Positions 2,342-19,337 are shown, counted from the first letter of the stretch. The stretch: DNA of 38,158 nt from Pseudomonadota bacterium (GCA_900299055.1 OMII01000090.1:1-38158); one strand, 5' to 3'. Notes: generated by a model not told the origin, from the letters alone. Translations and numbers: made by a program.

Positions 2342-3121
2342 TCATTCAGTGCCGTTGCACCTCCTTTGATCAAAGAACGGCAGTTCGATCTGCAGCCGTC
2401 CATGTTTTGACAAAATCGGTAACGATGAGAGGGTCTCACTGAACCGCCCAGTCTCAGGCAGAACATCACCCAAAGTTCCGGCGTTGAGGCCAAAAAGCTT
2501 TAACGCTGCGGCGTGGTCATGGGATGGTGCCTGTGTAAATGCCGCTATCTTGCTATTAGACATAGCCAAGAATTGTGCGTAGTAAAGTTTTGGGGTTACC
2601 ACCCTGGGATCTCGATACGGCTTTGGAACGTAGTCCGCCCTTTTTATCCCTCCTGAATCGGCGTAGTAAGGTGAGAAAGCTTCAACGAAACGGGCCATCG
2701 ATTGCTGTGAACACGGAGTATTGGGATCTTGATCTACTCCGAGCGAACATAAAAAGACTCCCAGTACTCGCGACTTTCCCGGCAAAGGCAGCGTAACTCT
2801 GTACGTGCCAACATTTTTGTCGTCAGTTTTTTCCGCAAGGGGCTCTCCTTGCCACTCTATGGGCGACGTCTCTCCGATAGCCTCAACGGTTAATTTGAGC
2901 GCGAGATCACCTCGAGCGTTCTGGAGATCATTAAGAATCAGATCGTAGTCTCCAAACATACAGCGAGATACAGGAACCAAGTCAAAAAGAAAAACTTGCT
3001 CACGTTCTCCTGCTTTGAGCACTGTCATCTCGGCAAGGCCTTCAGCGTAGCTTTTCCTTGCTATGACAAACGCTACAAGGGTAGCACACCCCAATTGCGC
3101 GATCATCCTCCGTAATTTCAT
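2342..3121 (-). CDS. Hypothetical secreted protein, co-oriented with the Hint-domain gene
   Basis: 259-aa ORF with a GGAGG RBS upstream, N-terminal signal peptide-like segment (..ARKSYA/E) and four Cys in the mature part. No family recognised. Confidence 0.7.
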   Translation of the reverse strand: MKLRRMIAQLGCATLVAFVIARKSYAEGLAEMTVLKAGEREQVFLFDLVPVSRCMFGDYDLILNDLQNARGDLALKLTVEAIGETSPIEWQGEPLAEKTDDKNVGTYRVTLPLPGKSRVLGVFLCSLGVDQDPNTPCSQQSMARFVEAFSPYYADSGGIKRADYVPKPYRDPRVVTPKLYYAQFLAMSNSKIAAFTQAPSHDHAAALKLFGLNAGTLGDVLPETGRFSETLSSLPILSKHGRLQIELPFFDQRRCNGTE

Positions 3122-3153: not shown

Positions 3154-4158
3154 CTACTTCTTTCGTTTTGCTGAGATCTCATGCTGTACAATCAGATCTC
3201 CCACCACTAACCCGTCAGCCACCATGAGTCCGTCGCTCGGCAATCCGTGCCGTTCTAAAATAAAATTGATCACAGAGAGTCCTGCCGTAGGTCTCTCCCG
3301 TGATACCTTACGGACCTTGACTTTCTCCCCGGCCGAATCCTGTAGGATGTCTCCTGAGCGGATCTCTTGCGCCTGTCGCCATCCACGCGCCATGAACATC
3401 GGATGCTCGGTGGAAGCTCTAAGTGTCGCCCCATCGGTCTTCAGTACAACAAGCGCTTTCCTCTCGGGGCCCTCAGAGATATTCAGAATTTTCACCGCCT
3501 TCTTGGTCACGGGATTCCAAACTGTCTCGCCTGCGGAGAACTCCTCAATCTTCTTATAGGTCACTCCATCACCGGTGAGAATGTTCACTCCATGAGGGAA
3601 GCAGCCGTACTGCCATCGGACGAGGCCGCAAAGAAAGCAGGATTGCGCAGCGTTGCCCGAGAATTGGCGATCAAACAAACCACTGTCAATTGTCCACTGC
3701 CTCTGATTTATATAATCATTGATGAGGGCGTCGGAGCGAACCCAGGTAAAGTTTGTGACTAAGTTAACTCCTGTGGTGCCGAGTGTCTGTGAATTAGGAT
3801 TCTTGGCACACACCCAGGAAGAGTCGTTATCATTGAGGTACCAGCGCTTTCGAGCTGTATCGTACTCCATCTTAGCGCCATTAAACTGGTACGTGATGCC
3901 GTCGTGCACTTGATTGGCTAATGACACCTGGCTAACCGTTCGCCCGTCACAAAAACTGGCGGGGGGCGGTGGAACGGGCGTTGCCGTAGGCGGCACCGTC
4001 GCTGTCGGTGGAACAGATGTAACGCTATCATTTTGCCCATTTTCGGATTGCCGCTGGGCCCAGGCACGAGTTGCAGTAGCAGATAGCGATCCACCACTAG
4101 AGATGAATATCAACGCTACAAGCAGTCGCTTGCTATGAATATGGCGTTGCCCCTTCAT
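3154..4158 (-). CDS. Secreted protein with C-terminal Hint (Hedgehog/intein) autoprocessing domain
   Basis: Signal peptide and Pro/Thr linker, then G/CFPHGVNILTGDG (Hint block A, Cys codon 3603-3601), LRASTEHPMF (block B TxxH) and VINFILE..GLMVADGLVVGD (blocks F/G). ATG 4158 is preceded by AAGGAAG; the alternative start is GTG 4173. Confidence 0.85.
   Translation of the reverse strand: MKGQRHIHSKRLLVALIFISSGGSLSATATRAWAQRQSENGQNDSVTSVPPTATVPPTATPVPPPPASFCDGRTVSQVSLANQVHDGITYQFNGAKMEYDTARKRWYLNDNDSSWVCAKNPNSQTLGTTGVNLVTNFTWVRSDALINDYINQRQWTIDSGLFDRQFSGNAAQSCFLCGLVRWQYGCFPHGVNILTGDGVTYKKIEEFSAGETVWNPVTKKAVKILNISEGPERKALVVLKTDGATLRASTEHPMFMARGWRQAQEIRSGDILQDSAGEKVKVRKVSRERPTAGLSVINFILERHGLPSDGLMVADGLVVGDLIVQHEISAKRKK
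3958..4017 (-). repeat. Pro/Thr-rich peptide repeat linker (VPPTAT-VPPTAT-PVPPPPA)
   Basis: Seen directly in the translation of the Hint-domain gene. Confidence 0.8.
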
Positions 4159-4565
4159 CGAATCTTCCTTCACGTGATCTCTCGGATTGGTAATCGACTC
4201 CTCGCGAGACTTTCTTGAGTAATGCTTTATTTGCGCCGTGATTACAAGAGTTTGGAAGTTCGTTGTGGGGTTGCCGAATTGCTTTGCTAGCGCTACTTCT
4301 GCCCAATTTCTCTGCGATAATCAGGAAGACTAGGTAGGTGAAACGCACGTCTCTCTTCGTGAGCTCAGTAAGTAAGGAGTGCTCCTCAGCCTCAGCCTCT
4401 GCATCTCGGTACGCTCTGCGATTGTACGAAGCTTAGAGCTTTGAGCTCAGAAATAGCCACTGACTATGTTGTGGTCAGCGGTGCCAGGGAAGGGAGCTGC
4501 GTCTGTGTTGAGGACCCCTTGCCATCGTGTGGTTCATTAGCGTAAGCGCGTGAAGCCAATGTCTG

Positions 4566-5993
4566 TTACGGCTGTTCTATCTCAGCCTCGGCTTGCCGCC
4601 TCTCGGCGGCTGCACGGATCGCTTCTAAGAAGCGGTTGCGAATTTCCTCTCTACGAGCCTCTTCTTCTGAGGCATTCGCGGGTATGCTCTCAGATTCAAC
4701 GGGTTCTTCAGATTCGTTGTAAACCTCCTCGACAGGTGCTGGAGCGCCCGGAGATTTGCTGCTCGCGGACTCTAACAATGAGAAGAGATTGCCAGATTTA
4801 TCTGCCTGGGCTTGGTTCGCTTGAGTCTTGTCATCTGCGGCGCTTTTAAAGTTGGCAACACCGCGCGCCGTATCAAGAAGGGATGTCTTGATAATACTTG
4901 GATAGTGGTCGAGCACAAAATCTTCGCTGGACTTCTTCGATGTCTCCTGCTGGCGAGATAGCGTTGTGTCCGCGACGACTACGTCTGTTGAGCCTTCATC
5001 CTTTATCGAGTGCGCTGGTGCATCGCCCGAAGCTGGGCGCTCTGTTGTTGGCTGGACTTTGTGCTCAGATACTGTGGCTGCCTTAATGGCTGAGCCGCTC
5101 TCGTGTGCGTGAGGTGTTGGGCGCCGTGAATTCGAGAAAAAGCCTATGCCTACCCATACGCTTAGAGCAACACCCAGTGATACTGCTGATACTTTCGCTA
5201 TCGCTTGCCCCCGGCGAGGACGCGTAGGATCCAATAGCGTATCTGTTGAAGCAGGTGTTCCGCTCATTGCTGCAGTCGCGAGAGCTACTTTCTCCGGAGC
5301 TCGGCTAGCTTGCTGGTGTTCTTGGCGTACCTTGTCTCTGATTTCGTTGATGAGTGCGTTGTTATGTGATCCCGCTGCTCCAAAGCCGATCGTTCTCTGA
5401 GAAGTTTGACCAACTTCAATTCGCTCGACTGATTGATTGTCGATCCAGCTCTCAGGCCGATAGGAGAGTGCTGGGATTACGATCAGAGCTTTGCGTGATC
5501 GCGCAAATGTTGCTAGCAAATCCGCTGCGCGTTCACGCCACTGACCGGAGATGTTTTCGAAGGGGTCGTTCAGAACTAGAACCCGCTCGGGATCGGTTGT
5601 GGCGGCGATCAATCGTAGCCTGGCTTCTTGATCAGCACTTAAGTCAGAGCATTTTTTTTCCGCTACGTTCTCAAGGCCGATTTGTAAGAGAAGAGCGTCC
5701 GCGGCCGAGTCGTTGATGTCATGCTTTGCGAGAAAGTCGCGCACAAGTAGTCCGGTTGTAGGTGAAGGCTCTCCAAAGCCGATAACGATATGTTCTTCTG
5801 CGCGGTATTCGTTGCCGGCGCAGGTGACCACGAGATTCTCTTTTCCTGGCGAACCCCCAAGGGCTCTCTGGTAGGGGCGCAGGTCGCTCGGCACTGACGC
5901 TCGAAGCACCGAGATCTTCCCGGCGAGGCAGTTTACCACGTTTAAAAGTTCCCCTGAGTTGGATAGAAGCTTGAGTTGTAACTTGTTCGGCAT
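4566..5993 (-). CDS. Degenerate ABC-ATPase-like domain + single TM helix + low-complexity C-terminal region
   Basis: LSADQEARLRLIAA..PERVLVLNDPFENIS aligns to the ABC signature/Walker B/D-loop. The hydrophobic segment VSAVSLGVALSVWVGIGFF is a likely TM helix. Confidence 0.65.
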   Translation of the reverse strand: MPNKLQLKLLSNSGELLNVVNCLAGKISVLRASVPSDLRPYQRALGGSPGKENLVVTCAGNEYRAEEHIVIGFGEPSPTTGLLVRDFLAKHDINDSAADALLLQIGLENVAEKKCSDLSADQEARLRLIAATTDPERVLVLNDPFENISGQWRERAADLLATFARSRKALIVIPALSYRPESWIDNQSVERIEVGQTSQRTIGFGAAGSHNNALINEIRDKVRQEHQQASRAPEKVALATAAMSGTPASTDTLLDPTRPRRGQAIAKVSAVSLGVALSVWVGIGFFSNSRRPTPHAHESGSAIKAATVSEHKVQPTTERPASGDAPAHSIKDEGSTDVVVADTTLSRQQETSKKSSEDFVLDHYPSIIKTSLLDTARGVANFKSAADDKTQANQAQADKSGNLFSLLESASSKSPGAPAPVEEVYNESEEPVESESIPANASEEEARREEIRNRFLEAIRAAAERRQAEAEIEQP

Positions 5994-6146: not shown

Positions 6147-7277
6147 TTAGATGGGCCGCGGTCGATCGACCTTTGCAAACGCGGTATCCTCTGCGATCTC
6201 TTCCTGCAGCGACCCCGAAACGAGGAGGCGATCAAAAACTTTTCCCTTCTCAAAAGGCCGGGTTCGCTCTGAGCGTAGCCCCTTTCGGAGTCGCGCTGTT
6301 CCATAAAACGAATCTCCACAGACGAGCGCTTCAGTACCTAGCCGAGTTTTGCAGGGCGGCGTAAGAATCCGCACTCCTGACGGTACAGAGCCGCCTTGCT
6401 GGAAAATAAATGCGGCGTACTTGATCCTGTGCTTGTTAAAGGAGAGTAGATGATCGAGCTGTGCGTTGAGCGGTGGTTGCTGCCACTCGAGTGTGTCGTG
6501 ACACCAGTCAGTGGCTGACGCGGAGAGCATTGGACACTCGCTTGAGCGAGTGCACGGGAAGATTGGCGCAAGGTCTGAGCGGGAGGCTACGACTCGATCG
6601 CGCATCTCCATTAAGCGACGAGTGTGGAGTTGCTGTCCCGGCTCAAGTAGTAGCAGATATCCACCGCGAGACACGGATTGAGTGAGAGCACTGAGTGTCG
6701 CCACTGACTGCTCATGGCTCAGCTCAGCGAGAACGTTTGCCGCAACTACTAGATCGTACGTCTCGAGACGCGGCTCTACAGAGTTTCGCATCCTAACGCC
6801 GAGTAGGTTGTTATTAATATCCCACGCCTCGATAAGGCTTAAGGCGAGCTCGCTCATGTGCGGCGAGCTTTCAACGCAGGTTATGCGCACTCGTTGCTGA
6901 AGAGAGCTGAGAATCGCCAGTGCCGCCGTGCCGGGACCGCACCCCACATCTAACATCGAGATCTCCGAGCGTTCAAATTGTAGCAACGGGGAGAGATGCA
7001 GAAGTTTAGCGGCGTTTATCGGGGTATAGTAGAGGGCATACGCTTGAGCTGCCCGTGCACTGTGTATTGGTGAGTGCAGCCTCGTGCCGGTCTCGTGCGT
7101 TACGTAGGCTTCAGAGACCCGGCGGAGTTCGGTAACATACGGCTGGAGCTCACGATGGGCGACGTCGCCCAGCTTATACTGGGCGAAAGCCGCCTCTGAG
7201 AGGATATTTTTCGCGATATAGCTCTCTAGTGTGGCGACGTGGCTCATGGGCATCAGTTTTAAGCGTATAGGACGCAA
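6147..7277 (-). CDS. Rsm22/METTL17-like (small ribosomal subunit Rsm22 family) SAM-dependent methyltransferase
   Basis: AYALYYTP, MLDVGCGPGTA (SAM motif I), YDLVVAANVLAEL, LLLLEPG and PCTRSSECPM..DWCH, KYAAFIF. The start could be a slightly downstream ATG. Confidence 0.8.
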   Translation of the reverse strand: MRPIRLKLMPMSHVATLESYIAKNILSEAAFAQYKLGDVAHRELQPYVTELRRVSEAYVTHETGTRLHSPIHSARAAQAYALYYTPINAAKLLHLSPLLQFERSEISMLDVGCGPGTAALAILSSLQQRVRITCVESSPHMSELALSLIEAWDINNNLLGVRMRNSVEPRLETYDLVVAANVLAELSHEQSVATLSALTQSVSRGGYLLLLEPGQQLHTRRLMEMRDRVVASRSDLAPIFPCTRSSECPMLSASATDWCHDTLEWQQPPLNAQLDHLLSFNKHRIKYAAFIFQQGGSVPSGVRILTPPCKTRLGTEALVCGDSFYGTARLRKGLRSERTRPFEKGKVFDRLLVSGSLQEEIAEDTAFAKVDRPRPI

Positions 7278-7381
7278 GTCTAACGAAGCTTACGGAGCTT
7301 TACTAGGGTGTGCTAGGACTTGCATAAGTGCCCTTTATGGGCGACGTTAGCGGTACGTTTTGATCTGACGAGCGCGACGCC

Positions 7382-9202
7382 ATGAACCCCCCAATTATAC
7401 ATCGTGAGGACGCCGTAAAGGTGCGGCAAGCATACGCCACCGCTGGCAAGCGAGTCGGGTTTACGTCGGGGGTATTTGATATCGTGCACCCAGGCCATGT
7501 GGAGTATCTGCGTGCTGCGCGCGAGCTTGTTGATGTTTTGTTTGTTGGTGTTAATTCCGATCTATCCGTCCGAGCTAATAAAGGACCGACAAGGCCCATA
7601 AACTCCGAACGTGATAGAGCGGAGGTCCTGTTGGGGCTCTCCTCGGTCGACCATGTTTTTATCTTCGACGAGCGCAACAACAACACTAATATCGAGCTTC
7701 TGCGCCCGGATGTGTATATCAAAGCAGGGGATTACTCAGAGGAGCGTCTCAGCTCTAAGAAGATAGTGGAGTCTTACGGCGGTTCGGTCGCATTGGTGCC
7801 GTTTCGTGAAGGCAGCTCAACGACTGGAGTCGTTGCAAAGATAAAAGCAGCTCTTGTGACACAAGAAGGACATGAAGTTTCCTATGACTTTCGCCCCGCG
7901 GTGTTCCTCGACCGTGATGGCACCATCAACGAGCATATCGAATATTTAAGCGAGCCCGCGAGGTTTATTCCAATTCCCGGCGCTTACGCGGCAATCAAGC
8001 GTCTTCAAGATCTTGGATATCGGATAGTGGTAGTGACTAATCAGCCCGGAATAGGTCTTGGCTACTTTCGCAGAGAAGATCTATTTGCCGTAAATCGTGA
8101 GATGATGAGACAAGGCACAGAGTACGGCTGTGCTTTTGATAAGATTTACTACTGCCCGCACTCAAAAGCAGACGCCTGTGCGTGTCGTAAACCAGGGACG
8201 TATTTTATCAAGCTGGCAGAGCGAGAATTAAATATAGACCTCGCCAATAGCGTTATCATCGGTGACATGACATCCGATGTAGAATGTGGGGTCCAGTCTG
8301 GCTTGCGTACTGTGTTGGTGAGAACTGGGCGCGGCGGTGATGATAAGATGTTCAAGGTCGCACCGACGCATATAGCCGCTGACCTTGCTGGTGCCGCTGA
8401 GTGGATAGCAGCCCAACCAAAAGTTGCCGCGCGCGAGGGTGGGGCTTCCGTTGTAAAATCGACTGCTCACGATGCACACTTTCTTGCGGCAGCGACCTCT
8501 CTCGCTGACAACCTGGGCCGGGAGTACGCGACGATATTTGGCTCTGTCCTGGGGGGTGCCACTCTGATTGAACAACGTACCAGCACAGATGGCTCACCGT
8601 CGATAGTGGCGGATTCGTTGGATCTGATACGCAAAGCGTCACATCGTGGATTAGCCCTATCGAAGAAGCTTGAGGCGCTGGCGAGAGCGGAGGAGCGGCC
8701 CAGCGCGACGAGATCGCTGGAGTCTTGTGTGAAGGCCGTCATAGAGCTTGTATCAAGTCATCACGGCGATGAGTGTCAGATAGAACTGATATGTCCAGAG
8801 GATGTAGAGGTTGAGGTAGCTGATTTTACCGTCGTGCAGATGTTGCTTGAGCTGTGCGAGAACGCCTTGGAAGCTATGAGAGCCCTACCGGAGCGCTTTA
8901 TCGTGTTTCACGTCGAGAGGCTAGAACTTGACAGCGAAGCGTCTGCTCTTGAATTGAAGCCGGGGTCTTATGCCCGCGTCAGTATTGTCGACCACGGCGA
9001 TGGGCTTGAAGAGCCTCGGGAGCGGGACGGCCTTGTATCCCTCTCGGCGGCCCGCGTAAAAGAGTATGGGCGAGGCCTGGGTCTGAGTATGTTGATGGCC
9101 AAGTCTGTCATGAAGCAACATGGCGGAACCGTGGCTGTGGCGTCTCGCCTGCAGGCGGGGACTAATATATCTCTCTACTTCCCAGTGTCTCATAAATCCT
9201 AG
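7382..9202 (+). CDS. Fusion: D-glycero-D-manno-heptose-1-phosphate adenylyltransferase (HldC/RfaE domain II) + heptose-1,7-bisphosphate phosphatase (GmhB, HAD-IIIA) + degenerate HisKA/HATPase_c
   Basis: Adenylyltransferase: TSGVFDIVHPGH, GVNSDLSVRANKGPTRPIN, KAGDY, SSTT. GmhB: AVFLDRDGTIN, VTNQPG, CPH..CACRKPG, IGDMTSD. HATPase_c: N box LCENALEAM, G1 DHGDG, G2 GRGLGLS, HGGTVAVAS..GTNISLYFP. Confidence 0.88.
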   Translation: MNPPIIHREDAVKVRQAYATAGKRVGFTSGVFDIVHPGHVEYLRAARELVDVLFVGVNSDLSVRANKGPTRPINSERDRAEVLLGLSSVDHVFIFDERNNNTNIELLRPDVYIKAGDYSEERLSSKKIVESYGGSVALVPFREGSSTTGVVAKIKAALVTQEGHEVSYDFRPAVFLDRDGTINEHIEYLSEPARFIPIPGAYAAIKRLQDLGYRIVVVTNQPGIGLGYFRREDLFAVNREMMRQGTEYGCAFDKIYYCPHSKADACACRKPGTYFIKLAERELNIDLANSVIIGDMTSDVECGVQSGLRTVLVRTGRGGDDKMFKVAPTHIAADLAGAAEWIAAQPKVAAREGGASVVKSTAHDAHFLAAATSLADNLGREYATIFGSVLGGATLIEQRTSTDGSPSIVADSLDLIRKASHRGLALSKKLEALARAEERPSATRSLESCVKAVIELVSSHHGDECQIELICPEDVEVEVADFTVVQMLLELCENALEAMRALPERFIVFHVERLELDSEASALELKPGSYARVSIVDHGDGLEEPRERDGLVSLSAARVKEYGRGLGLSMLMAKSVMKQHGGTVAVASRLQAGTNISLYFPVSHKS

Positions 9203-9370
9203 TGGTCGAATTCGGGGGTAATCCCAGGGTGGGGTGGAGGTTATCCGGCAGTGGCTTTGACCCCAGAGCTGCTTTGGTCTCCGCCCTGCGACTTGCGTGC
9301 TTAGCTTCGTAGGTTTTAGCCGCCCAGTGCGCTACAATAGGTGCTAGTCGCCGATTGAGAGGATTGTTGT

Positions 9371-9955
9371 ATGACCGCGTTTCCTGATGTTTCGATTGCG
9401 TTACCGGAGTGGGTTCAGCGTGAGGTGCGGCCAGGTGAGCGCTACGAAACGCTTGAGGATCGGATGAGGTTTGTAATCTCACTCGCCGCCCGAAATGTCG
9501 ACCGGGCAACCGGCGGGCCGTTTGGGGCAGCGGTATTTGAGCGAGATAGCGGCCTTTTAATCGCTCCCGGCGTTAACCGTGTTGAGCTATCGCTCTGTTC
9601 GCTCGCTCACGCGGAATCTGTGGCGCTCATGGTGAGCCAGCAGGCACTTAAAACATATGATCTTGGGGCAGAGCACTTGCCCGCGCTGGAGCTGGTGACA
9701 AGCTCGCAGCCATGTATCCAGTGCTATGGCAATGTGTGGTGGTCAGGGATTAGTCGCTTAGTTACGGGCACTTCTATCGCGCAGACCTCAGCGATAGCGG
9801 GTTTTGATGAGGGGCCTGTGCCGTCGAACTGGGCAGAGCTTCTGCGTGCTAAAAAGCCGTCGGAGCGCGCGATCGAGGTCGTCCAGGGCGTCTTAGCCGA
9901 CGAGGCGTGCAAAGTTTTGGAGCGCTACGCACAGAGCGGTGGGGCGCGATATTAA
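9371..9955 (+). CDS. Zn-dependent nucleoside/nucleobase deaminase (cytidine/guanine deaminase-like)
   Basis: GGPFGAAVF, AHAE, PCIQC and AGFDEG motifs. Confidence 0.88.
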   Translation: MTAFPDVSIALPEWVQREVRPGERYETLEDRMRFVISLAARNVDRATGGPFGAAVFERDSGLLIAPGVNRVELSLCSLAHAESVALMVSQQALKTYDLGAEHLPALELVTSSQPCIQCYGNVWWSGISRLVTGTSIAQTSAIAGFDEGPVPSNWAELLRAKKPSERAIEVVQGVLADEACKVLERYAQSGGARY

Positions 9956-10013
9956 CTCTCGACTGGTACGCCACTCGACGCACTCACAACCTACTTTGAG
10001 GAAGGTGTTAATC

Positions 10014-11585
10014 TTACGAACGCTTAGAGCTTTTTTTCGATCGCTTTGTCTGGGAGCTCTTGGAGCTTTTCAAGGCCGCAGCGTGGTAGTGAGTTGATTT
10101 TATCGAGCGGTAATGCTTTTTGCGGCGAGCGGTTGGCGCCACCTCGGGCATCGGTGGAGGGTCCACTCGGAAGAACTTTTGAAATACTAATCGACCCAAG
10201 TGTGAGGCCTTTGCCCCGTGCCTCGCGTCGACGGTGATGACCGCTACTGCGAGCTCTGGATTGTTTATCGGAGCAGCTGCTATGAACCAGTTGTTAAGCC
10301 CAACGGGGTCAGTCCCACTCAGGGTTCCGGTCTTTGCCGCTACGTCGATATTTCCGAGCGTTGGACGAGAGCCTCGCATGAATTCGCGGCGAGAAGTGCC
10401 GATAGTGGTCGTGTTACGCATCATTTCGAGGAGTGATTGGGCGGTTCCCGGCTCTACGATTCTCTGGATGATCTCGGTACGTGGTTGCTCCAGGGTTCTG
10501 CCGTCGCTGTCGGCGATCCTTTCTATTAGTTGTGGGCGAGGAAGGAGTCCGTCATTAGCGATTCCTGATACCAGGGCTGCCGCGTGGACAGGGCTAATTT
10601 TCACCTGACCGAATCCGGCGGAAGTGCGACTCAATTCAAACGGATCTTCGTGTGGGATTGATGCTGAGCTTGGTGGGAGCGGCGCGGGGAAGTCGAGTGA
10701 TTGGTTGAACCCGAACTTATTCGCATAACGATTGAGTACCGAGCCGTTTAGGTACTTCAATCCGATATGTCCGAAGACTGGATTGCATGATCGTCCCATC
10801 GCCTCACCCACGGACATCATGCGTCGGTCAGAGCGAGGATTGGGGAGGTAGTTCCATTCGTTGAGAGTGTAGGTGCCTCCACGAAAGGCTATGAGGGAGT
10901 TTGGATCGATGCCAGCATGTTCAACTGCGGCCGCGGCGGTTACAACCTTAAAGAGGGATGCAGCTGGGAATCCTGCGTGGTACTCAATATCCGCTATGGT
11001 CGGTGACTTTCCTGCGATGGCAAGAATCGCCCCAGTGCGCGGATTCATCGCCACAACAGCGACATGATTCGCTGCGGCGTTTCTGACCACGCCAGATACA
11101 TACTCTTGGAGTTCAGGATCGAGGGTGTAGAATACGTAGTTGTTGTTGGGAGTAACGCTCGCAAAGCGATCGCCGATTCGCGCGTTGAACGATGGTCGTT
11201 TTGAGAGGCGTAGGGCGCCCGAGGAAGAGCTTGATACGCTCACCACATCGAGCTGCGGCACAGGGTATATGCGACCGCTTGAGCGAGCGGCGCTCTCCAT
11301 AGCGAGTTGATCTCGTGACTGCTCGATAGCTCCTCTCATGAGTGCTTGCTCGCGGGCGATCTCTTCGGGGGCCGCAGCAAGAGACTCTGCGCCACGGGAG
11401 TCTGCCGCTAGAGCGATGCTGCGAGGAGAGTGCGGCATAGCTCCAATGATGCCAAGAGCTGTGAGCCCGGCGGCGACTGCGAGTCTCGGTGCGTACGCGA
11501 TTTTTTTCTTATTTTTTTGTTGTCGGGTAGGGGTGCTTGGGAGAAGAGAGGAGTTGTTGTCTGGTAAGAGATGCCCCAGTTTCAT
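10014..11585 (-). CDS. Penicillin-binding protein, transpeptidase domain with short N-terminal anchor
   Basis: SxxK (ASLFK), SxN (SCN) and KTG (KTGT) motifs; N-terminal hydrophobic segment; basic C-terminal tail. Probable start ATG 11585. Confidence 0.88.
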   Translation of the reverse strand: MKLGHLLPDNNSSLLPSTPTRQQKNKKKIAYAPRLAVAAGLTALGIIGAMPHSPRSIALAADSRGAESLAAAPEEIAREQALMRGAIEQSRDQLAMESAARSSGRIYPVPQLDVVSVSSSSSGALRLSKRPSFNARIGDRFASVTPNNNYVFYTLDPELQEYVSGVVRNAAANHVAVVAMNPRTGAILAIAGKSPTIADIEYHAGFPAASLFKVVTAAAAVEHAGIDPNSLIAFRGGTYTLNEWNYLPNPRSDRRMMSVGEAMGRSCNPVFGHIGLKYLNGSVLNRYANKFGFNQSLDFPAPLPPSSASIPHEDPFELSRTSAGFGQVKISPVHAAALVSGIANDGLLPRPQLIERIADSDGRTLEQPRTEIIQRIVEPGTAQSLLEMMRNTTTIGTSRREFMRGSRPTLGNIDVAAKTGTLSGTDPVGLNNWFIAAAPINNPELAVAVITVDARHGAKASHLGRLVFQKFFRVDPPPMPEVAPTARRKKHYRSIKSTHYHAAALKSSKSSQTKRSKKSSKRS

Positions 11586-11874
11586 TACCGTGAAGTCCCG
11601 CAATACGTAAGACAGCGCATTTGCTGTCGCTTTCGATCCGTTCTCTGCTTGTAGGTGGTGAAGCGATCCTCGCCGCAACAGCTCGCTGAGGTGCGCCTTA
11701 CCTAACTATGATGCCAGAGAAGCCCATTCAGAGCGCACATTGCCTTAAGCAGTGCCAAAGGATGGGTGCGCGAAGCCCAGACCTCCAATGTGACTGATTT
11801 CGGGGGCTTGAACAACCCTTAAAATTACGTTTGCCCTTGAAGGAATGATGCGTCTAGGGTACACCCAAGAGCGT

Positions 11875-12363
11875 ATGTTCTGGCGCAACAAGACCGCTAT
11901 CCAACACCAAGCAGCAGAGTCGCTTTTGAGCGATGGTAAAGGCCAGATTAAGGAGAATTTCGTACGTCAACCAGCTAACGTTGACGCCCAACGGGGTGAT
12001 ATTGACGAGCGCGCTCTGGTGGCAGAGCTCGGGGCCAGTGAGCGCTGCTATGTGGTGCCGCGCTCACACCGCATCTCGGGCGCTATTGTCACATCCAGGG
12101 CGGTCGTTGTGGAAGGGCAGCTTACTAACGGCTCTTTGGACGCTCCTGCTGTGCTGGTGGCGCAGGGCGGTCGTTTGGCTGTGCCGACCCAGGCGTCAAA
12201 AGTGTTCGTACAAGGCGAGGTGAATGCCAACCTTTCGGCCTCGGTGCAGATGATTGTAGGGCCTCGGGGTGCTGTAAAGGGCACGCTTAATGCCCCGTCG
12301 ATACAGGTTGAGCCGGGCGCACAGATGGCAGAGGCGACTCTGTGTGTAGGGCCGAAGCGCTAA
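11875..12363 (+). CDS. Bactofilin (polymer-forming cytoskeletal protein, CcmA/BacA-like)
   Basis: Beta-helix repeats ISGAI..VVVEGQL..VFVQGEVNANL..GAVKGTLNAPSIQVEPGA. MFWRNK resembles the N-terminal MF-basic motif of bactofilins. Alternative start 11845. Confidence 0.8.
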   Translation: MFWRNKTAIQHQAAESLLSDGKGQIKENFVRQPANVDAQRGDIDERALVAELGASERCYVVPRSHRISGAIVTSRAVVVEGQLTNGSLDAPAVLVAQGGRLAVPTQASKVFVQGEVNANLSASVQMIVGPRGAVKGTLNAPSIQVEPGAQMAEATLCVGPKR

Positions 12364-12542
12364 GAAAGTGTAGTGTTGTCCCGCCCCTCGGGGTATTACG
12401 TCGAGATTCCATCCTGGTTTAATGTGCGCTCAGGGAGATACACGCCGCGGTTGCCGCTGGTGTTTCCCGGCGATATGCAGCGAGATCCCTCTGTAGTCAA
12501 TGAGTTCACTGTGACTACTGAAGCACATAAACTGAGTTGAAT

Positions 12543-12571
12543 AAAAAAGGGCTGGTCTTTCGACCAACCCT
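12543..12571 (-). terminator. Rho-independent terminator downstream of rplS
   Basis: Minus strand GGGTTGGTC-GAAA-GACCAGCCC followed by TTTTTT. Confidence 0.85.
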
Positions 12572-12622
12572 CTGTCGCGTACTCTTCTGGTTATTAAGAA
12601 GAGGCGCAGATGTGATGAACAA

Positions 12623-13108
12623 CTAGGCCGCCTGTGTTGGGCTCTCTTCCTTCGAGTTCGTATACATCGTCTTCATGCGGGTAGCCTTACCTCGAAGCGG
12701 TCGTAGGTAAAAGAGTCGCGAGCGACGGACCTTAGCTCGAGTGATAACTTCTACCTTCTCGATGCGTGGGCTGTGGAGTGGGAATGTTCGCTCAACGCCG
12801 ATGTTGTACGACACCTTTCGCACCGTGAACGTTGCATCAGCGTGGTTGCCCTTGCTGCGCTTGAGGACAACGCCCTCAAATACTTGGATACGCTCCTTGG
12901 TTCCCTCGATGATCTTTGCGTGTACGCGAACGGTATCGCCGATGTTAAGTTCTGGGAGATCTGAGCGAATGCTCGCTCCTGTTACAGCTGCCAGCGCCTG
13001 GCCGAGGGTAGTTGGCTCGCGCTTTGTCGCTTTCGGAGCAGTTACGGCCTGCTCGGTCTGCGTCTCTGCGGCTGTCTCTGTCGTATTCGTCTCGTCTGAG
13101 CTTGTCAT
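12623..13108 (-). CDS. rplS: 50S ribosomal protein L19 (bL19) with N-terminal extension
   Basis: [47 protein letters not shown] and [11 protein letters not shown]. Confidence 0.97.
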
Positions 13109-13370
13109 AGTAAATCCACTGGTGCCTTTTCAAACAACGGACGGGACTTGTACCACAAGGAGCCCTGCAGTTCAATGAATTGGGGCCTAGATTGTGAGAT
13201 CTGCCAACGGTAGTGCGCGTCGTCAGTGAGGCTCGATAAGCGCTAAAAACCTGAAGTCTTTGGCTTTTGTTCGGTGCTTTGTCGGTGTACACTGCTCTGC
13301 GTGGTGGCGCGACAGGGCTACTCGAGGGGGCGCTGTTTTTGCAGCTACCTGAATTTATTGAGGTTTAATT

Positions 13371-13682
13371 GTGAATCGAGCGAGTCTAATCATTCGAAAA
13401 GCGAAGAAGCGAAAGAGTTTCAGGCCGGCGTGGACCAAGGAGCAGGACCTCAAGTACAAGGAGTTGGTTGCCCAGCTCGAGCAGCTCGGATTCACGGTGC
13501 GCCGTGAGGAGTTGAAGCGCGGACATTGCTGGAAGGTTGTTAGTGGTTCGTGTCGCTCGCTGTCTCAGCGTTTTATCTTTGTTGATAGTAGGCTTGCGCC
13601 TCAAGATCAGATCTCGTTTCTAGAATTGAAGCTCCTCGACGCTAAAACTGAGGGAGAGTCTCAGGTTTCTGAGGCCGCGTAG
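13371..13682 (+). CDS. Small conserved-looking hypothetical protein
   Basis: 103 aa; GTG start preceded by GAGG. The pattern GFTVRREE..SGSC..FIFVDSRLAP..QISFL is protein-like. Confidence 0.6.
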   Translation: MNRASLIIRKAKKRKSFRPAWTKEQDLKYKELVAQLEQLGFTVRREELKRGHCWKVVSGSCRSLSQRFIFVDSRLAPQDQISFLELKLLDAKTEGESQVSEAA

Positions 13683-13830
13683 CGGTTTCTCGCGGCGGAG
13701 CGCGTCGGGGCAGGCCAGGACTGGGAGTTTTTCAGCGGCCGTTGGGCGATTGAAAATCTCTTCATAGGCGAGCACCTTTCTATCTATTTTCAACTAAATT
13801 GTTGCTATGCTCCCAAGGCTGCTACGGTAG

Positions 13831-14916
<1,086 letters not shown>

Positions 14917-14938
14917 TCTAGGAGCGTGTGTAGGTCTC

Positions 14939-15790
14939 ATGCGACAAGAGATTTCCGAACGGACGCATATCGCACTCGTTTCGTTTGGTCTTTTTGTGGC
15001 CTCGTTATTTCTCACGGCCTACAGTGCGCGTAATCCGGCAGTGGCACGAGTGGGGCATACTATTGTCTTGGAGGTTACGGCTCCGTTCGCTCGCACTGCA
15101 AACGCCATCGCCCAAGGAGTTCAATCGGTCTGGGGTAGATATCTCTATCTCGTCTCGACAGCTCAGCAGAATGAGAGCCTCTCTCGGCGCGTATCGGAGT
15201 TGGAGAGTCGGCTTGGGATGCTCAGTGAGTTCGAGTCGGAGAATGAAAGATTGAGGCAAGCGTTGTCGTTCGCCTCGGAACGTCAATTGCGCGGAGTCGC
15301 CGCAGCTGTGATAGGGGCAGATTCAAGTGGATGGATTCGAGGTCTCGTAATTGATCGGGGCTCTTCACATGGCGTTCGGCCGGGTATGGCCGTTATCCAT
15401 CCTCGGGGGATCGTCGGGCAAATTACGTCAGTCGCGTCGAATTCAGCACGGGTGCTTTTGGTTAATGATCACTCCAGTGGAGTAGATGTGTTAGTGCAGA
15501 GCTCTCGAGTGCGGGGTGTGGTCGAGGGAGCAGGAGAGAAGGTGTGTGAACTCAAGTTCGTGACGAAGGAGAACCCGGTAAAGGTTGGTGAAGTTGTGGT
15601 TACATCGGGGATGGACCGAGTTTTTCCAAAGGGTGTAGTCGTTGGAACTGTCTCTCATGTGAGCGCGCAGACCAGCACGCTATTTCAGACCATAGAGGTT
15701 CGCCCTGCGGTCAATTTCGCGCGTATCGAAGAGGTTCTCGTGGTCGCCTCCGGGGCCGAAGAGTCGGGTATCCAATCAGGGGGTAAGTAA
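14939..15790 (+). CDS. mreC: Rod shape-determining protein MreC
   Basis: TM helix, coiled coil ENERLRQAL, IDRGSSHGV and GEVVVTSGMDRVFPKG; position after mreB. Confidence 0.95.
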   Translation: MRQEISERTHIALVSFGLFVASLFLTAYSARNPAVARVGHTIVLEVTAPFARTANAIAQGVQSVWGRYLYLVSTAQQNESLSRRVSELESRLGMLSEFESENERLRQALSFASERQLRGVAAAVIGADSSGWIRGLVIDRGSSHGVRPGMAVIHPRGIVGQITSVASNSARVLLVNDHSSGVDVLVQSSRVRGVVEGAGEKVCELKFVTKENPVKVGEVVVTSGMDRVFPKGVVVGTVSHVSAQTSTLFQTIEVRPAVNFARIEEVLVVASGAEESGIQSGGK

Positions 15791-15793
15791 GCG

Positions 15794-16306
15794 ATGCGGT
15801 CTCTCCTCATACTTGTGATTGGATTTGCTCTTGTAATCGTGCAGAGCTTGCTGCATGGCATGGGTATGCCGGAGTGGCTGCTGCCACAGGGGCTTATCGT
15901 GTGCGTGGTGTACTTAGCTTTTTTTGAAAGCTCGATAGCGGGTGCACTGCTCGCATTCGGCTGCGGGCTACTGCTGGATCTAACGACAGCGACGGTGTTG
16001 GGGCCATGGGCTGGTGCCTATGTGCTTGCGTATGCACTTCTATCGTTCGTGTCGCCGCGTTTGTTTGTGGAATCGACGGTTGTGACCTCGGTGGTTACGG
16101 GCGTTACGAGTCTTTTCGCTGGCTCGGTCTACTTGTTTTTGGCTTTCGAGTATCAGTCGCTATCACAGGAAGATATCGTGGTGTTGTTGGGGCAGGCCAG
16201 CGCCTCCGCGATTGTTGCGCCCGCAATATCGTCCATTATCGGTAGGGTGTGTGGGCGGTCAAACTCTCGATTGATGAATCACGCTTCGCTCGTATCGGCG
16301 GTGTAA
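15794..16306 (+). CDS. mreD: Rod shape-determining protein MreD
   Basis: 170-aa hydrophobic protein with GLLLDL motif between mreC and mrdA. Confidence 0.88.
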   Translation: MRSLLILVIGFALVIVQSLLHGMGMPEWLLPQGLIVCVVYLAFFESSIAGALLAFGCGLLLDLTTATVLGPWAGAYVLAYALLSFVSPRLFVESTVVTSVVTGVTSLFAGSVYLFLAFEYQSLSQEDIVVLLGQASASAIVAPAISSIIGRVCGRSNSRLMNHASLVSAV

Positions 16307-16312
16307 TCCTAT

Positions 16313-18199
16313 ATGCCGAGGTCGGAACGTAATCAGCTCAACCTTGGAGTGCGTGTGATATGGGCGGGAGCGCTCTGCGCCTGCTGCCTGGCTATTCTTG
16401 TAGGGCGGCTCTGGTACTTGCAGATTGTCAAAGGCAGCTTTTTTCGCGACCGCTCAGAAAACAACAGGCTTCGTACTATCTTCATAACTGCTCCGCGCGG
16501 AGTAATCCACGATAGAAATGGCGAGCCATTAGTTAGTAACCGTCCATCATTCAATGTAGAGCTCGTAGTCGAAGACACTCCAGATCTGAAGAAGACTGTT
16601 GCCGATGTGGCGGAACTCGCAGGGGAAAACCCGGATGAGTTGTACGAGCGTGTGTCGAAGCAGACAAAGCGGAGACGATTTGAGCCGAAGATCGTGCTGC
16701 GCGATGTGTCGCGCGATGTTGTGGGTGCTATTTCAGCGCAGCGGCATCGCTTGCCCGGAGTGGTAGTCGGCGTGGCTCCTGCGCGTCAGTACCCGTTTGG
16801 AGACTTGGCAGCGCACCTTGTCGGGTACATTCGCGAGATCTCCTCGGATCAGCTCAAGAGCGTTACGTACAGTGGTTATCGCTCCGGTGACATGGTTGGC
16901 CAGTCGGGTATCGAATCGAGTCTTGAGCGATATTTGCGCGGCGAGCGGGGCGTGCAGGCGGTTATTGTAAACGCCCTGGGGAGTAAGATCGGAGAGGCTT
17001 ATACCCAGCCCGAGATTCCCGGCAGTAATGTATTTCTGACGATCGACAAACGGCTACAGAAGGTAGCCGATGATGCCTTGGTGGGTAAGAAAGGCGCGGT
17101 AGTTGTCATGGACGTGAAAAATGGCGACATATTGGCGCTTTCATCCGCGCCACGTTTTGAGCCGGCGCTATTCACTGGTGAGATTTCAAAGGATGAGTGG
17201 TCTGATCTGACAGATCCGAAATCGTACAAGTTATCAAATCGCGCTTTGCAGGGGGCGTTTCCACCAGGGTCAGTATTTAAGATCTTTGTGGCTGCAGCAG
17301 CGCTCTCGGAGGGTGTCACAGACACCCACGAGAAGACCTTCTGTCCTGGTTTTCTCCAGTTTGGAAAGAGATCGTTTCGATGTCACAAGCACTCGGGACA
17401 TGGCCGCACCGATTTATTTGAGGCAATAGTTCAATCGTGTGATGTGTTTTTTTACACGATTGGGCAACGCTTGGGCGTAGACCGCATTCATTATTACGCA
17501 CGAGATCTATTTGGTTTTGGGGAGCCTGTTGGACTGGCCGGGATGGAAGAGAGTGTTGGGCTCGTGCCCTCTACGAAGTGGAAGGAGTCCTACTTTCGCA
17601 ATCCTCAAGACAAAAAATGGTACCCAGGAGAGACTCTGCCCGTTGCAATTGGTCAGGGCGCAGTCTCGACAACGCCGATGCAAGTAGCACGAGCGCTCGC
17701 GGCAGTTGTAAATGGAGGAAAGCTGATCAAGCCCCGAGTTGTGAAGCGAGTAGTAGCGGAGGATGGGCGTGTGCTGGAAGATCGCTCACAGGCGCCAGAG
17801 ATTGCCCGAGTGATCGACATTGATCCCGCTATCCTTCAGGAGCTAAAGCGTTCGATGCTGGGAGTGGTTGAAGATAAACGAGGCACGGGCCATGCTGCTG
17901 CTCTTCCTGAGGTTAGTAAGATTCGGGTTGGAGGAAAGACTGGTACCGCGCAGGTGTCGTCACGAGAGTCTGGCGTTGATGTGGAGGATCACGCGTGGTT
18001 TGCTGGGTTTGGGCCAGCTGAGGATCCCTCCCTTGTGGTGGTTGCGTTGGTAGAAAATGGGGGGCACGGCGGGGCGGCTGCGGCACCGATCGCGCGTCAG
18101 ATTTTTATGCAGTATTTCAATGTTCAAGAACCCCAGAAGCCGCAGAAGACAGACCCGAAAAAGCGTAGTCGTGTGGAGGTGAACCGTGTTGACCATTGA
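16313..18199 (+). CDS. mrdA: Penicillin-binding protein 2
   Basis: RLWYLQI, APRGVIHDRNG, PPGSVFK (SxxK), SCD, GKTGTAQV and DHAWF. Confidence 0.97.
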   Translation: MPRSERNQLNLGVRVIWAGALCACCLAILVGRLWYLQIVKGSFFRDRSENNRLRTIFITAPRGVIHDRNGEPLVSNRPSFNVELVVEDTPDLKKTVADVAELAGENPDELYERVSKQTKRRRFEPKIVLRDVSRDVVGAISAQRHRLPGVVVGVAPARQYPFGDLAAHLVGYIREISSDQLKSVTYSGYRSGDMVGQSGIESSLERYLRGERGVQAVIVNALGSKIGEAYTQPEIPGSNVFLTIDKRLQKVADDALVGKKGAVVVMDVKNGDILALSSAPRFEPALFTGEISKDEWSDLTDPKSYKLSNRALQGAFPPGSVFKIFVAAAALSEGVTDTHEKTFCPGFLQFGKRSFRCHKHSGHGRTDLFEAIVQSCDVFFYTIGQRLGVDRIHYYARDLFGFGEPVGLAGMEESVGLVPSTKWKESYFRNPQDKKWYPGETLPVAIGQGAVSTTPMQVARALAAVVNGGKLIKPRVVKRVVAEDGRVLEDRSQAPEIARVIDIDPAILQELKRSMLGVVEDKRGTGHAAALPEVSKIRVGGKTGTAQVSSRESGVDVEDHAWFAGFGPAEDPSLVVVALVENGGHGGAAAAPIARQIFMQYFNVQEPQKPQKTDPKKRSRVEVNRVDH

Positions 18200-19337
18200 T
18201 CGGCGACTCCTTACGCATTTCGACTGGATGTTGTTCTCGCTAACGGTGTGTATTCCGCTTGTTGGTCTCATAGTCCTCTACAGCGCCGGATACGATCCAG
18301 AGTTTGCGGTTGATTTCCTTGGGTGGTTAAACGTGGAATTTAGGAGTCCTGCCTGCTTCAAGCAGGGGGTGTATCTTCTAACCGGCCTCGTCCTGATGGT
18401 GGTGGGGATGGCGATCCCCACTCAGACTCTCTATCGCTACTCATTTGCCATCTACGGGGGCGCGCTTCTTCTCTTGGTCGCCGTCGCTGGTTTTGGAGTT
18501 GTTGTAAATGGCTCTCGTCGATGGTTAGACGTCGGACTCTTTAAGCTGCAGCCAGCGGAGTTTATGAAGCTTGGGTTAATCGTGACAATGGCGAGACTGC
18601 TCGCAAAGTCACCACCTAAAAACGCGATAGCCTACTCACTCCGTGAGCTGCTCGTGCCAGCTTTTTTTATTCTGATCCCGATGGGGCTGATTGCACAGCA
18701 GCCTGATTTGGGCACCGCGCTTTCATTGGCGATAGTGGGAGTATGTCAGATCTTGTTCGTAGGTATTCGCCCGAAGGTTATTTTCGGAGTGGTACTGGCA
18801 GTGTGTGTGCTCGCGTATCCTGCCTGGAATTCACTTCATGAATATCAGCAGCGTCGAGTTATGGTGCTGCTTGATCCCGAAGCTGATCCGCAGGGAAGCG
18901 GTTATCACATCACCCAGTCAAAGATCGCTGTTGGTTCGGGAGAGCTCTTTGGAAAGGGGTTTCAGAAAGGCACCCAGACGCAACTTGAGTTTCTTCCGGA
19001 GCACACTACGGACTTTGTGTTCTCGGTTCTTGCAGAAGAGTGGGGCTTTGTCGGGTGCACTTTTATGATAGCGATGTTTTTCTGCCTCCTCGCTGCGATG
19101 CTTCGAGTGGCACATCGGAGCAGGGACCTGTTTGCGTGTCTGCTGGTGGTGGGCATCACGTCCCAGATATTTGCACATATTGTCATCAATATCGGAATGG
19201 TGATTGGATTAATGCCGGTAGTGGGTATACCGCTGCCTCTCATAAGTTACGGGGGTTCTTCGCTGCTCTCACTCTTGTTCGGGCTAGGCATCGTTCAAGG
19301 GGTGAGTATGCGACGGACGCTCTTTACATCGGTATAA
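18186..19337 (+). CDS. rodA: SEDS peptidoglycan glycosyltransferase RodA
   Basis: QPAEFMK, QPDLGT, GSGYHITQSKIAVGSG, LPEHTTDFVF and SYGGSS; overlaps the mrdA end. Confidence 0.97.
   Translation: MLTIDRRLLTHFDWMLFSLTVCIPLVGLIVLYSAGYDPEFAVDFLGWLNVEFRSPACFKQGVYLLTGLVLMVVGMAIPTQTLYRYSFAIYGGALLLLVAVAGFGVVVNGSRRWLDVGLFKLQPAEFMKLGLIVTMARLLAKSPPKNAIAYSLRELLVPAFFILIPMGLIAQQPDLGTALSLAIVGVCQILFVGIRPKVIFGVVLAVCVLAYPAWNSLHEYQQRRVMVLLDPEADPQGSGYHITQSKIAVGSGELFGKGFQKGTQTQLEFLPEHTTDFVFSVLAEEWGFVGCTFMIAMFFCLLAAMLRVAHRSRDLFACLLVVGITSQIFAHIVINIGMVIGLMPVVGIPLPLISYGGSSLLSLLFGLGIVQGVSMRRTLFTSV

Follow-up and report, generated by a model that had tools for sequence, protein, structure and literature searches.

Domain organization of the fusion protein

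The stretch of DNA analyzed here (hereafter, the window) comprises the 38,158 nucleotides of OMII01000090.1:1-38158 from a Pseudomonadota bacterium (GCA_900299055.1). On its + strand it carries one open reading frame (ORF; 7382..9202) in which the domains of two enzymes of ADP-heptose biosynthesis, HldC and GmhB, are followed by a histidine kinase-like module composed of a DHp helical hairpin and a CA domain. The ORF starts with ATG and encodes 606 amino acids plus a stop codon, with zero internal stops. The assignment of the whole ORF as an HldC-GmhB-DHp-CA fusion is based on the reading frame, Pfam and NCBIfam matches, an AlphaFold2 model, and Foldseek comparisons. Three Pfam families are matched above their cut-offs, namely, CTP_transf_like (residues 28 to 132, 49.3 bits, cut-off 21), Hydrolase_like/HAD (residues 175 to 337, 55.6 bits, cut-off 22), and HATPase_c (residues 484 to 603, 41.6 bits, cut-off 26.4), and whole histidine kinase models of NCBIfam span residues 338 to 605 (VirA-like, E = 1.2e-22; PRK13557, E = 8.1e-21). 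In the source databases, such proteins are named rfaE-domain or GmhB proteins or are called hypothetical.

The HldC part (7382..7861, + strand) is homologous over residues 1 to 160 to domain II of Escherichia coli HldE and to the stand-alone HldC of Burkholderia pseudomallei (5xf2). Residues 17 to 155 match the NCBIfam model TIGR02199 (rfaE_dom_II) with an E value of 6.8e-51 and 171.9 bits, slightly below the cut-off of 181.5 bits (175.2 bits in the genome search), and this part matches positions 332 to 473 of PRK11316 (HldE). In the Foldseek comparison of the model, 5xf2 is retrieved with TMt values of 0.83-0.87 and 42% identity. The HxGH nucleotidyltransferase motif is intact as H36-P-G-H39 (7487..7498, + strand), and H36, G38, and H39 are invariant in the 31 and 83 sequences of alignments A1 and A2, respectively. 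In contrast to HldE, the fusion protein has no PfkB kinase domain, and an HldA-like kinase is encoded by a separate gene on another contig; unlike either HldE or HldC, the adenylyltransferase is fused here to GmhB and a kinase-like module.

The GmhB domain (residues 170 to 345; 7889..8416, + strand) is assigned as a HAD-IIIA heptose 1,7-bisphosphate 7-phosphatase. Residues 171 to 345 match GmhB PRK08942 (NF006506) with an E value of 1.9e-48 and 164.4 bits, below the cut-off of 178 bits, and the broader HAD-IIIA models TIGR01662 (102.8 bits, cut-off 44.6) and TIGR01656 (132.4 bits, cut-off 84.15) are passed. The fold resembles that of the solved GmhB structures (3l8e, 2gmw, 3l8h), with Foldseek TMt values of 0.84-0.89 and 33% identity to 3l8e/3l8h, and the DxDGT motif, the GDxxxD motif, and the Cys/His Zn site are all retained. 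HAD motif I reads D177-R-D179-G-T181 (7910..7924, + strand), of which each residue is invariant in A1 and A2; D177 is presumably the nucleophile, as in HAD phosphatases generally. The Zn-site residues C258, H260, C266, and C268 (8153..8185, + strand) and the GDxxxD motif are likewise invariant in both alignments, and over HAD motifs I to IV the residues D177, D179, T181, T219, K270, G294, D295, and D299 vary little or not at all. The domain does not stand alone here but lies between HldC and the DHp-CA module. The Zn site is invariant throughout the wider clade of the window protein; its cysteines are lost in some distant three-domain relatives that retain the phosphoaccepting His, namely, L110 1962-3785 (G028), P0124, P0127, and P0129 (for example, YSPHTKAENSKWRKP).

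An earlier note on this DNA, made from the sequence alone, had described one uninterrupted ORF with adenylyltransferase and GmhB motifs, and the positions found (HPGH at residues 36 to 39, DRDGT at residues 177 to 181 with the D177 codon starting at 7910, and the Zn site) bear that description out. The note had also raised misassembly or a frameshift at the junction; this explanation was rejected because the same uninterrupted three-domain frame is conserved across many independent assemblies. A contig produced by another assembler spans 7000-9600 with two substitutions and no indel, although it possibly derives from the same source sample and is therefore not independent. The two substitutions are T>C at 7133 and T>C at 7690 of the window.

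Structure of the kinase-like module

The AlphaFold2 model of the fusion protein, built on 83 relatives, has a mean predicted local distance difference test (pLDDT) score of 81.2 and a predicted template modeling (pTM) score of 0.40, the latter of which supports no fixed arrangement of the domains relative to one another. In the model, the two enzyme domains are compact, residues 350 to 374 are of low confidence (pLDDT < 50), and the kinase-like part forms a helical hairpin and an alpha/beta domain at residues 446 to 601. A flexible linker between GmhB and DHp (residues 346 to 361; 8417..8464, + strand) was delimited by low pLDDT, low identity, and variable length. Its length is 17 to 43 residues across the relatives and approximately 27 residues in the fusion protein; for the rate analyses, the linker was defined as residues 346 to 372. 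Complex prediction with two copies of residues 373 to 606 and residues 1 to 345 as the partner (alignment A2) returned a score of 0.00 for the module against the enzyme part, which gives no verdict and is evidence in neither direction.

The DHp-like hairpin (8465..8692, + strand) consists of helices at residues 362 to 400 and 410 to 437, as judged from the secondary structure of the model, the histidine kinase models, and the alignment to the DHp of ZraS. Foldseek matches the kinase-like part to the DHp-CA kinases ZraS (9jfj), CckA (5idj), and HK853. Arg380 (codon 8519..8521, + strand) occupies the position of the phosphoaccepting His: it aligns both with the His of the AHEIRNPL H box of ZraS (9jfj), which is the best sequence match among solved structures (E = 5e-07), and with the His of the GHDFNN motif in relatives, and the model places it in the first helix of the hairpin. 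The placement of Arg at this codon in the earlier note is thus supported by the sequence alignments and the model alike. Because of Arg380, the protein is not classed as a histidine kinase. Pfam HisKA (PF00512) has no match in the fusion protein at E <= 1; this miss was dropped as a test of His loss, since the His-bearing relatives L110 and L111 are likewise without a match (E <= 0.001).

The CA domain (GHKL ATP-binding; residues 446 to 606; 8717..9199, + strand) is defined by Pfam HATPase_c and by its resemblance to the CA domain of CckA (5idm, TMt 0.72). Residue counts here and below refer to 103 distinct three-domain sequences, in which kin do not count as independent. The N-box Asn494 (8861..8863, + strand) is Asn in 101 of the 103. 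In the G1 box, D537-H-G539-D-G541 (8990..9004, + strand), the Asp is present in 100 sequences and G539 and G541 in 96 each, and in the G2 box, G563-R-G565-L-G567-L-S569 (9068..9088, + strand), G565 is found in 83 and G567 in 96. The F box (residues ~551 to 560) belongs to the ATP lid and directly precedes G2; in the window protein, it is eroded (LVSLSAARVK, as against FxPFSSTK in relatives). This pattern of three boxes kept and one eroded is the one that the note had reported. The acid directly after the His site, E381 in the window protein, is Asp or Glu in 103/103 sequences.

Some further features of the module were observed. Cysteines that are conserved to an unusual degree lie between residues 392 and 492 (8555-8857): C449 is present in 102 of the 103 sequences, C465 in 93, C471 in 88, and C492, which sits inside the N-box helix (ELCEN), in 85. 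C392 is present in 84 sequences and is replaced by Gly in the R/K clade of the window protein, and the distant His-bearing relatives retain C449 without C492. These cysteines could be a redox or metal site. In addition, DHp helix 2 of the window protein contains His421 (8642-8644; ASHRGLA), a position that is Asn in most relatives (AANRGLA).

Distribution of the fusion

The C-terminal module is present in 89 of the best 120 protein clusters (from 1759 hits, with 8000 candidates scored), down to 42% identity. The other 31 are two-domain HldC-GmhB proteins of ~348 amino acids, one of which is cut inside the H box. In a library with 1.84 billion cluster representatives (50% identity), 10 of the 150 best matches listed span the full length and 4 are fragments that hold the module. 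The named relatives are labeled as metagenome-assembled genomes of Bdellovibrionota or Pseudomonadota, and the hosts are uncultured freshwater bacteria. In the ESM Atlas, only short soluble DHp-CA kinase clusters were returned, with no three-domain cluster of at least 50 members. Other permutations of heptose-pathway domains occur among the same 150 matches: proteins of ~670 to 715 amino acids with HldC-GmhB at the C terminus behind an N-terminal part of ~350 amino acids, and proteins of ~340 amino acids in the reverse order, GmhB then HldC (these groups include P0133, P0135, P0174, P0203, and P0251; and P0156, P0158, and P0162).

Searches of 91 genomes from the order most commonly gave the two-domain HldC-GmhB fusion; the three-domain gene is found in 30, and one more genome carries the module as a separate, overlapping gene. 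Thirty-five of the genomes, including that of the window, belong to its genus (g1); here, the three-domain gene occurs in 24 (in two of which a contig end cuts it), 10 have the two-domain form only, and 1, which is 70% complete, gave no match. The single genome of the sister genus carries the three-domain gene. The 55 genomes from other families of the order include 5 with the three-domain gene (truncated at a contig end in one), 1 split form, and 4 incomplete genomes without a match, and the rest are two-domain. The earlier note had named conservation of the fusion in related genomes as a check on its claim, and the fusion indeed recurs, both among the clusters and among the genomes of the order.

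The split form (G038, locus L111 2998-4817) consists of an hldC-gmhB gene (359 amino acids) followed by a gene for a 247-amino-acid DHp-CA protein, the start of which overlaps the upstream stop by 4 nucleotides. The 247-amino-acid protein has a canonical AHDFNNLL H box and a FQPFFTTK F box. We count this overlapping arrangement as support for a functional link between the enzymes and the module. The neighbors of the split form are CysS, a peroxiredoxin, and an NTP_transferase protein, with no receiver domain among them.

In the g1 genomes, the gene is flanked by a penicillin-binding protein (PBP)-type transpeptidase and an Rsm22-like methyltransferase, whether it is three-domain or two-domain. 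Of seven two-domain loci examined from this genus, five have at least one of these flanking genes at the same place, and tblastn detected no remnant of the module in any of the seven (best E = 0.14). On a FastTree phylogeny of the enzyme part (149 rows), the two-domain forms are nested among the three-domain forms, with 8 changes of the two-domain state, at least 2 of which are required by starred branches. The deep part of this tree is unsafe because of its long branches, and its root was not inferred.

Loss of the phosphoaccepting histidine

Of the 103 three-domain sequences, 40 have Ala at the His site, 27 have His, 19 Arg, 7 Gly, 3 Lys, 2 each Tyr, Thr, and Gln, and 1 Ser. When counted by genome instead (30 readable genomes of the order, one per species), the site is His in 11, Ala in 8, Arg in 6, Gly in 2, and Lys, Tyr, and Gln in 1 each. 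The non-His forms are confined to genus g1, where His has been replaced by Ala, Arg, Lys, Gly, Gln, and Tyr, and the 6 readable genomes outside the genus, including that with the split form, all have His. All 8 distant full-length representatives at the 50% cluster level have a GHD(F/L/I)NN H box and canonical N, G1, F, and G2 boxes. As to the conservation of the His-to-Arg change, which the earlier note had also held up as a check, non-His residues recur within the genus, and the readable relatives outside it keep His.

In an IQ-TREE quick tree (LG+G4, 80 rows, 607 columns, with the H-site column excluded), the deep branches carry His forms only. A clade of 59 rows (support, 98) divides into four well-supported clades, the branching order of which is not settled: Arg/Gln (6 rows); His, with one Tyr and one Ala (11 rows); Arg/Lys, which includes the window protein (12 rows); and Ala/Gly/Ser (30 rows). 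Four changes of His are counted on this tree, and at least three are forced by well-supported branches. As read from these alignments and the tree, the His-less state is a derived one, confined to one genus, and not a property of the family, and the module is judged to descend from a canonical His-bearing kinase that is still present in relatives, either fused or as an overlapping separate gene. A sub-clade with Arg or Gln at the site (L112 in G018, L128 in G071, P0077, and P0079) has lost the G1 box as well (VTDMRSGP or VDSDHAPA as against DHGDG). Here the decay of the pocket has reached a later stage, yet the frame is still open.

Selection on the module

The rate of change was compared between the domains of the same protein. 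Between the window and its nearest genome (L091-L092), the proportion of nonsynonymous differences (pN) is 0.127 in DHp and 0.104 in CA, close to the values of 0.084 in HldC and 0.096 in GmhB, as against 0.286 in the linker. In a pair from the Ala clade (L096-L097), the corresponding values are 0.086, 0.076, 0.091, and 0.068 for DHp, CA, HldC, and GmhB, and 0.528 for the linker. Overall, pN ranges from 0.29 to 0.70 in the linker and from 0.03 to 0.29 in the domains, and the His-less DHp and CA domains change 3 to 6 times more slowly than the adjoining linker. Mean pairwise identity among seven sequences of the Arg clade is 0.88 in HldC and in GmhB, 0.83 in DHp and in CA, and 0.49 in the linker. 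In the only His-less pair that is not saturated (L102-L114), the ratio of nonsynonymous to synonymous rates (dN/dS) of the CA domain is 0.096, and DHp has zero nonsynonymous changes; in most pairs, synonymous sites are saturated (proportion of synonymous differences, 0.62 to 0.89), dN/dS is therefore poorly estimated, and the rate argument rests mainly on the comparison between domains within one protein.

On this evidence, the His-less module appears not to be decaying but to have been under purifying selection after the loss of His. Among what the earlier note had set against its own proposal were two separate genes in relatives together with neutral decay of the kinase part. This combination was not found: the single split form is intact, and the His-less module evolves about as slowly as the enzyme domains.

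Pathway context and neighboring genes

The genome of the window has a size of 2.9 Mb and is 96.7% complete. In profile searches, the fusion gene is the only match to rfaE_dom_II and the only strong match to GmhB in this genome. A homologue of rfaE_dom_I that is the HldA-like kinase (332 bits) lies on contig C249, adjoining two family-9 heptosyltransferases, GmhA is present, and HldD is matched above its cut-off (374 bits). As the sole copies of HldC and GmhB in an otherwise complete pathway, the fused domains point to a housekeeping route to ADP-heptose. The idea that the GHKL domain might stand in for the heptose kinase of HldA or HldE domain I was rejected because of the separate rfaE_dom_I homologue on C249.

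The earlier note had seen no receiver or response regulator gene nearby. In agreement with it, Pfam detected no receiver domain in 29 window ORFs of at least 150 amino acids (out of 38 listed; the target was omitted, as were 8 ORFs for being nested, antisense, or duplicates), nor beside the gene in L013/L014 or L110/L111; any partner must therefore be unlinked. A promoter and terminator scan of 7100-10100 yielded no signal that exceeded the expectation from shuffled sequence, and none at all on the + strand.

Downstream of the fusion gene, window 10014-19337 shares a PBP-type transpeptidase, bactofilin, ribosomal protein L19, MreB, and MreC with L014 2049-8023, the locus of a relative that is only 40% identical, and the window additionally has PBP2 and RodA after the MreB/MreC stretch. 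The shared neighborhood may reflect no more than conservation of gene order, or it may hint at a connection with cell-wall elongation. Elsewhere in the window, a 339-amino-acid ORF on the - strand (3154-4173) weakly matches Pretoxin-HINT with an E value of 7.8e-06 and 26.6 bits, just below the cut-off of 27.7; the ORFs around it (2342-3121, - strand, 259 amino acids; 4566-5993, - strand, 475 amino acids) have no Pfam family.

Discussion

HldE, HldC, GmhB, and histidine pseudokinases are already known, and the part that appears to be new is the addition of a transmitter to these enzymes. In a literature search covering the main texts of papers, no paper was found on an HldC/GmhB-kinase fusion or on its stepwise conversion to a pseudokinase, which agrees with the remark in the earlier note that the architecture was not known from the literature. 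Among characterized proteins, the module most closely resembles class I kinases of the NtrB/ZraS/CckA type (HDFNNLL H box; 9jfj, 5idj, 1r62), which are its best matches in both sequence and fold and share with it the DHp hairpin, the GHKL-type CA domain, and the N, G1, and G2 boxes. In relatives of the module, the H box (GHDFNN) and the F box (FxPFFTTK) are canonical. The fusion protein differs from these kinases in having Arg at the phospho-His site and an eroded F box, in lacking PAS and HAMP domains, a membrane sensor, a receiver domain, and an adjacent regulator, and in having a floppy linker in place of the helical signaling linker.

A conserved transmitter module with a residue other than His at the phosphorylation site is also found in DivL and PsmA. 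DivL of Caulobacter has Tyr at the His site and neither kinase nor phosphatase activity, and yet it dimerizes and binds DivK~P (PMC4211667). PsmA of Streptomyces is a histidine pseudokinase that resembles hybrid kinases and binds DivIVA (PMC12963549). Two relatives of the window protein carry Tyr, and many carry Ala, which is also the residue in DivL of M. magneticum. DivL differs in having all of the boxes, PAS domains, and a known partner (DivK~P/CckA). In contrast to both DivL and PsmA, the present module follows a pair of metabolic enzymes, has Arg at the site in the window protein, and has lost His recently and repeatedly within one genus.

We favor, with moderate confidence, the interpretation that the protein is an active bifunctional enzyme joined to a functional pseudokinase, i.e., a module that dimerizes, binds nucleotide, and docks a partner. 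Enzyme activity, ATP binding by the module, its dimerization, and the existence of the partner are all properties that we infer. The N-terminal two thirds would act as the heptose-1-phosphate adenylyltransferase (HldC) and the heptose-1,7-bisphosphate 7-phosphatase (GmhB), and the fast-evolving, floppy linker of ~27 residues would tether them to a class I histidine kinase transmitter made up of the DHp hairpin and the GHKL domain. With Arg380 and the eroded F box, neither autophosphorylation at the canonical site nor onward transfer of phosphate is expected of the module any longer. A dimerizing module would keep two enzyme units together, and its ancestral docking surface would have been kept for an unlinked partner, which might be an orphan response regulator or, as for DivL, another kinase. 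ADP-heptose synthesis would thereby be coupled to a signaling state without phosphotransfer. The earlier note had suggested, as possible roles, the coupling of precursor flux to signaling or an ATP-sensing or dimerizing regulator. The low confidence, poor conservation, and variable length (17 to 43 residues) of the linker favor tethering or co-localization over a classical helical lever from sensor to kinase.

Several results weigh against such a functional pseudokinase, and some of them would suit a relic, that is, a module that lost its job (partner or signal) in the ancestor of the genus and persists on an essential enzyme as a tolerated appendage in slow decay, its frame surviving only because truncation seldom occurs or does slight harm to folding. 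The module is gone from 10/35 genomes of the same genus and is thus dispensable in some close relatives, and in the seven loci examined it has left no remnant, five of them keeping their flanking markers. His has been replaced at least three times, and the eight different residues now found in its place (Ala, Arg, Gly, Lys, Tyr, Thr, Gln, and Ser) look like relaxed constraint at that site, albeit in sequences that include kin. The F box is eroded in the clade of the window, the loss of G1 in the G018/G071 sub-clade means that ATP binding is not retained everywhere, and no response regulator was found nearby among the 29 window ORFs scanned with Pfam. The saturation of synonymous sites and the low pTM score limit the functional reading further, as does the fact that the HldC and GmhB domains each fall slightly short of their NCBIfam equivalog cut-offs. 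We nevertheless regard a relic as unlikely. Its expected decay is opposed by the rate of the His-less DHp and CA domains, which is about that of the enzyme domains and far below that of the linker, by the CA dN/dS and the unchanged DHp of the L102-L114 pair, by a full-length frame that is open in 22 genomes of the genus and in two more is cut only by contig ends, and by the retention of the N, G1, and G2 residues in 96 to 101 of the 103 sequences and of the acid after the His site in all of them.

Two further interpretations assign the module a catalytic or sequestering role, and in our view both have a lower probability still. HisKA kinases carry E/D-x-x-N/T as a phosphatase motif, and His-site mutants of EnvZ and NtrB reportedly keep phosphatase activity. 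The His-less DHp might dock a phosphorylated orphan regulator and dephosphorylate or sequester it, acting as a sink or sensor. The invariant acid after the His site fits this motif, as does the residue four on from that site, which is Asn or Thr in 88/103 sequences (the window protein reads R380-E-Y-A-T384), and DivL binds DivK~P via the same surface (PMC4211667). We nevertheless hold this role to be quite improbable: the fourth residue is Ala in several members of the wider R/K clade, a candidate regulator was not identified, and DivL itself is devoid of phosphatase activity. It also overlaps the favored pseudokinase interpretation, from which it differs only in how the module acts on its partner. 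Kinase activity toward another acceptor, either a different His or a Tyr, Ser, or Thr, in cis or on a substrate (for instance, the enzyme to which the module is joined), appears very unlikely. GHKL Ser kinases of the SpoIIAB type offer a model for it, the N, G1, and G2 boxes are kept, Tyr stands at the His site in two relatives, and His421 is present in DHp helix 2 in four of the six R/K-clade sequences listed. Against it, among 10 His-less sequences examined, P0015 (Arg), P0020 (Ala), P0061 (Gly), and P0077 (Gln) have no His at all in residues 362 to 437, P0012 lacks one at 421, and the only one in P0082 is at 428. By the helix limits of the model, His421 is closer to the hairpin loop than the canonical site is, by ~9 residues. 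Because only some R/K-clade members have it and its height on the hairpin differs, it was set aside as a relocated acceptor and is kept only within this weak alternative. In the clade of the window, erosion has affected the F box and ATP lid, and DivL, which has Tyr at the site, is without kinase activity (PMC4211667).

A different arrangement may be imagined for the His-bearing relatives. As a HAD phosphatase, GmhB works via an aspartyl-phosphate, and its fold and Mg/Asp site resemble those of a receiver domain. The kinase of these relatives, whether tethered by the linker of 17 to 43 residues or made from an overlapping gene, might exchange phosphate between the DHp His and GmhB, forming a self-contained two-component circuit that reads or throttles ADP-heptose flux. 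We consider this idea highly speculative and the least probable of those discussed; if it were true, the Arg380 form would be a phosphotransfer-off version that keeps the docking and ATP-binding parts.

The architecture and the evolutionary series described here are real and unusual, and the function in the uncultured hosts is what we infer from them. Within one order, at one syntenic locus and on an assayable enzyme, they provide a natural series for the conversion of a histidine kinase into a pseudokinase, with states that include canonical His forms, the split form, forms in which His was replaced (independently, three times or more), ATP pockets that have decayed further, and clean deletions. 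ADP-heptose is the donor for the inner core of lipopolysaccharide and a strong agonist of innate immunity, and, to our knowledge, the post-transcriptional regulation of its synthesis is poorly known. The physical joining of the last two soluble enzymes of the pathway to a two-component transmitter would directly link the supply of an envelope precursor to signaling.

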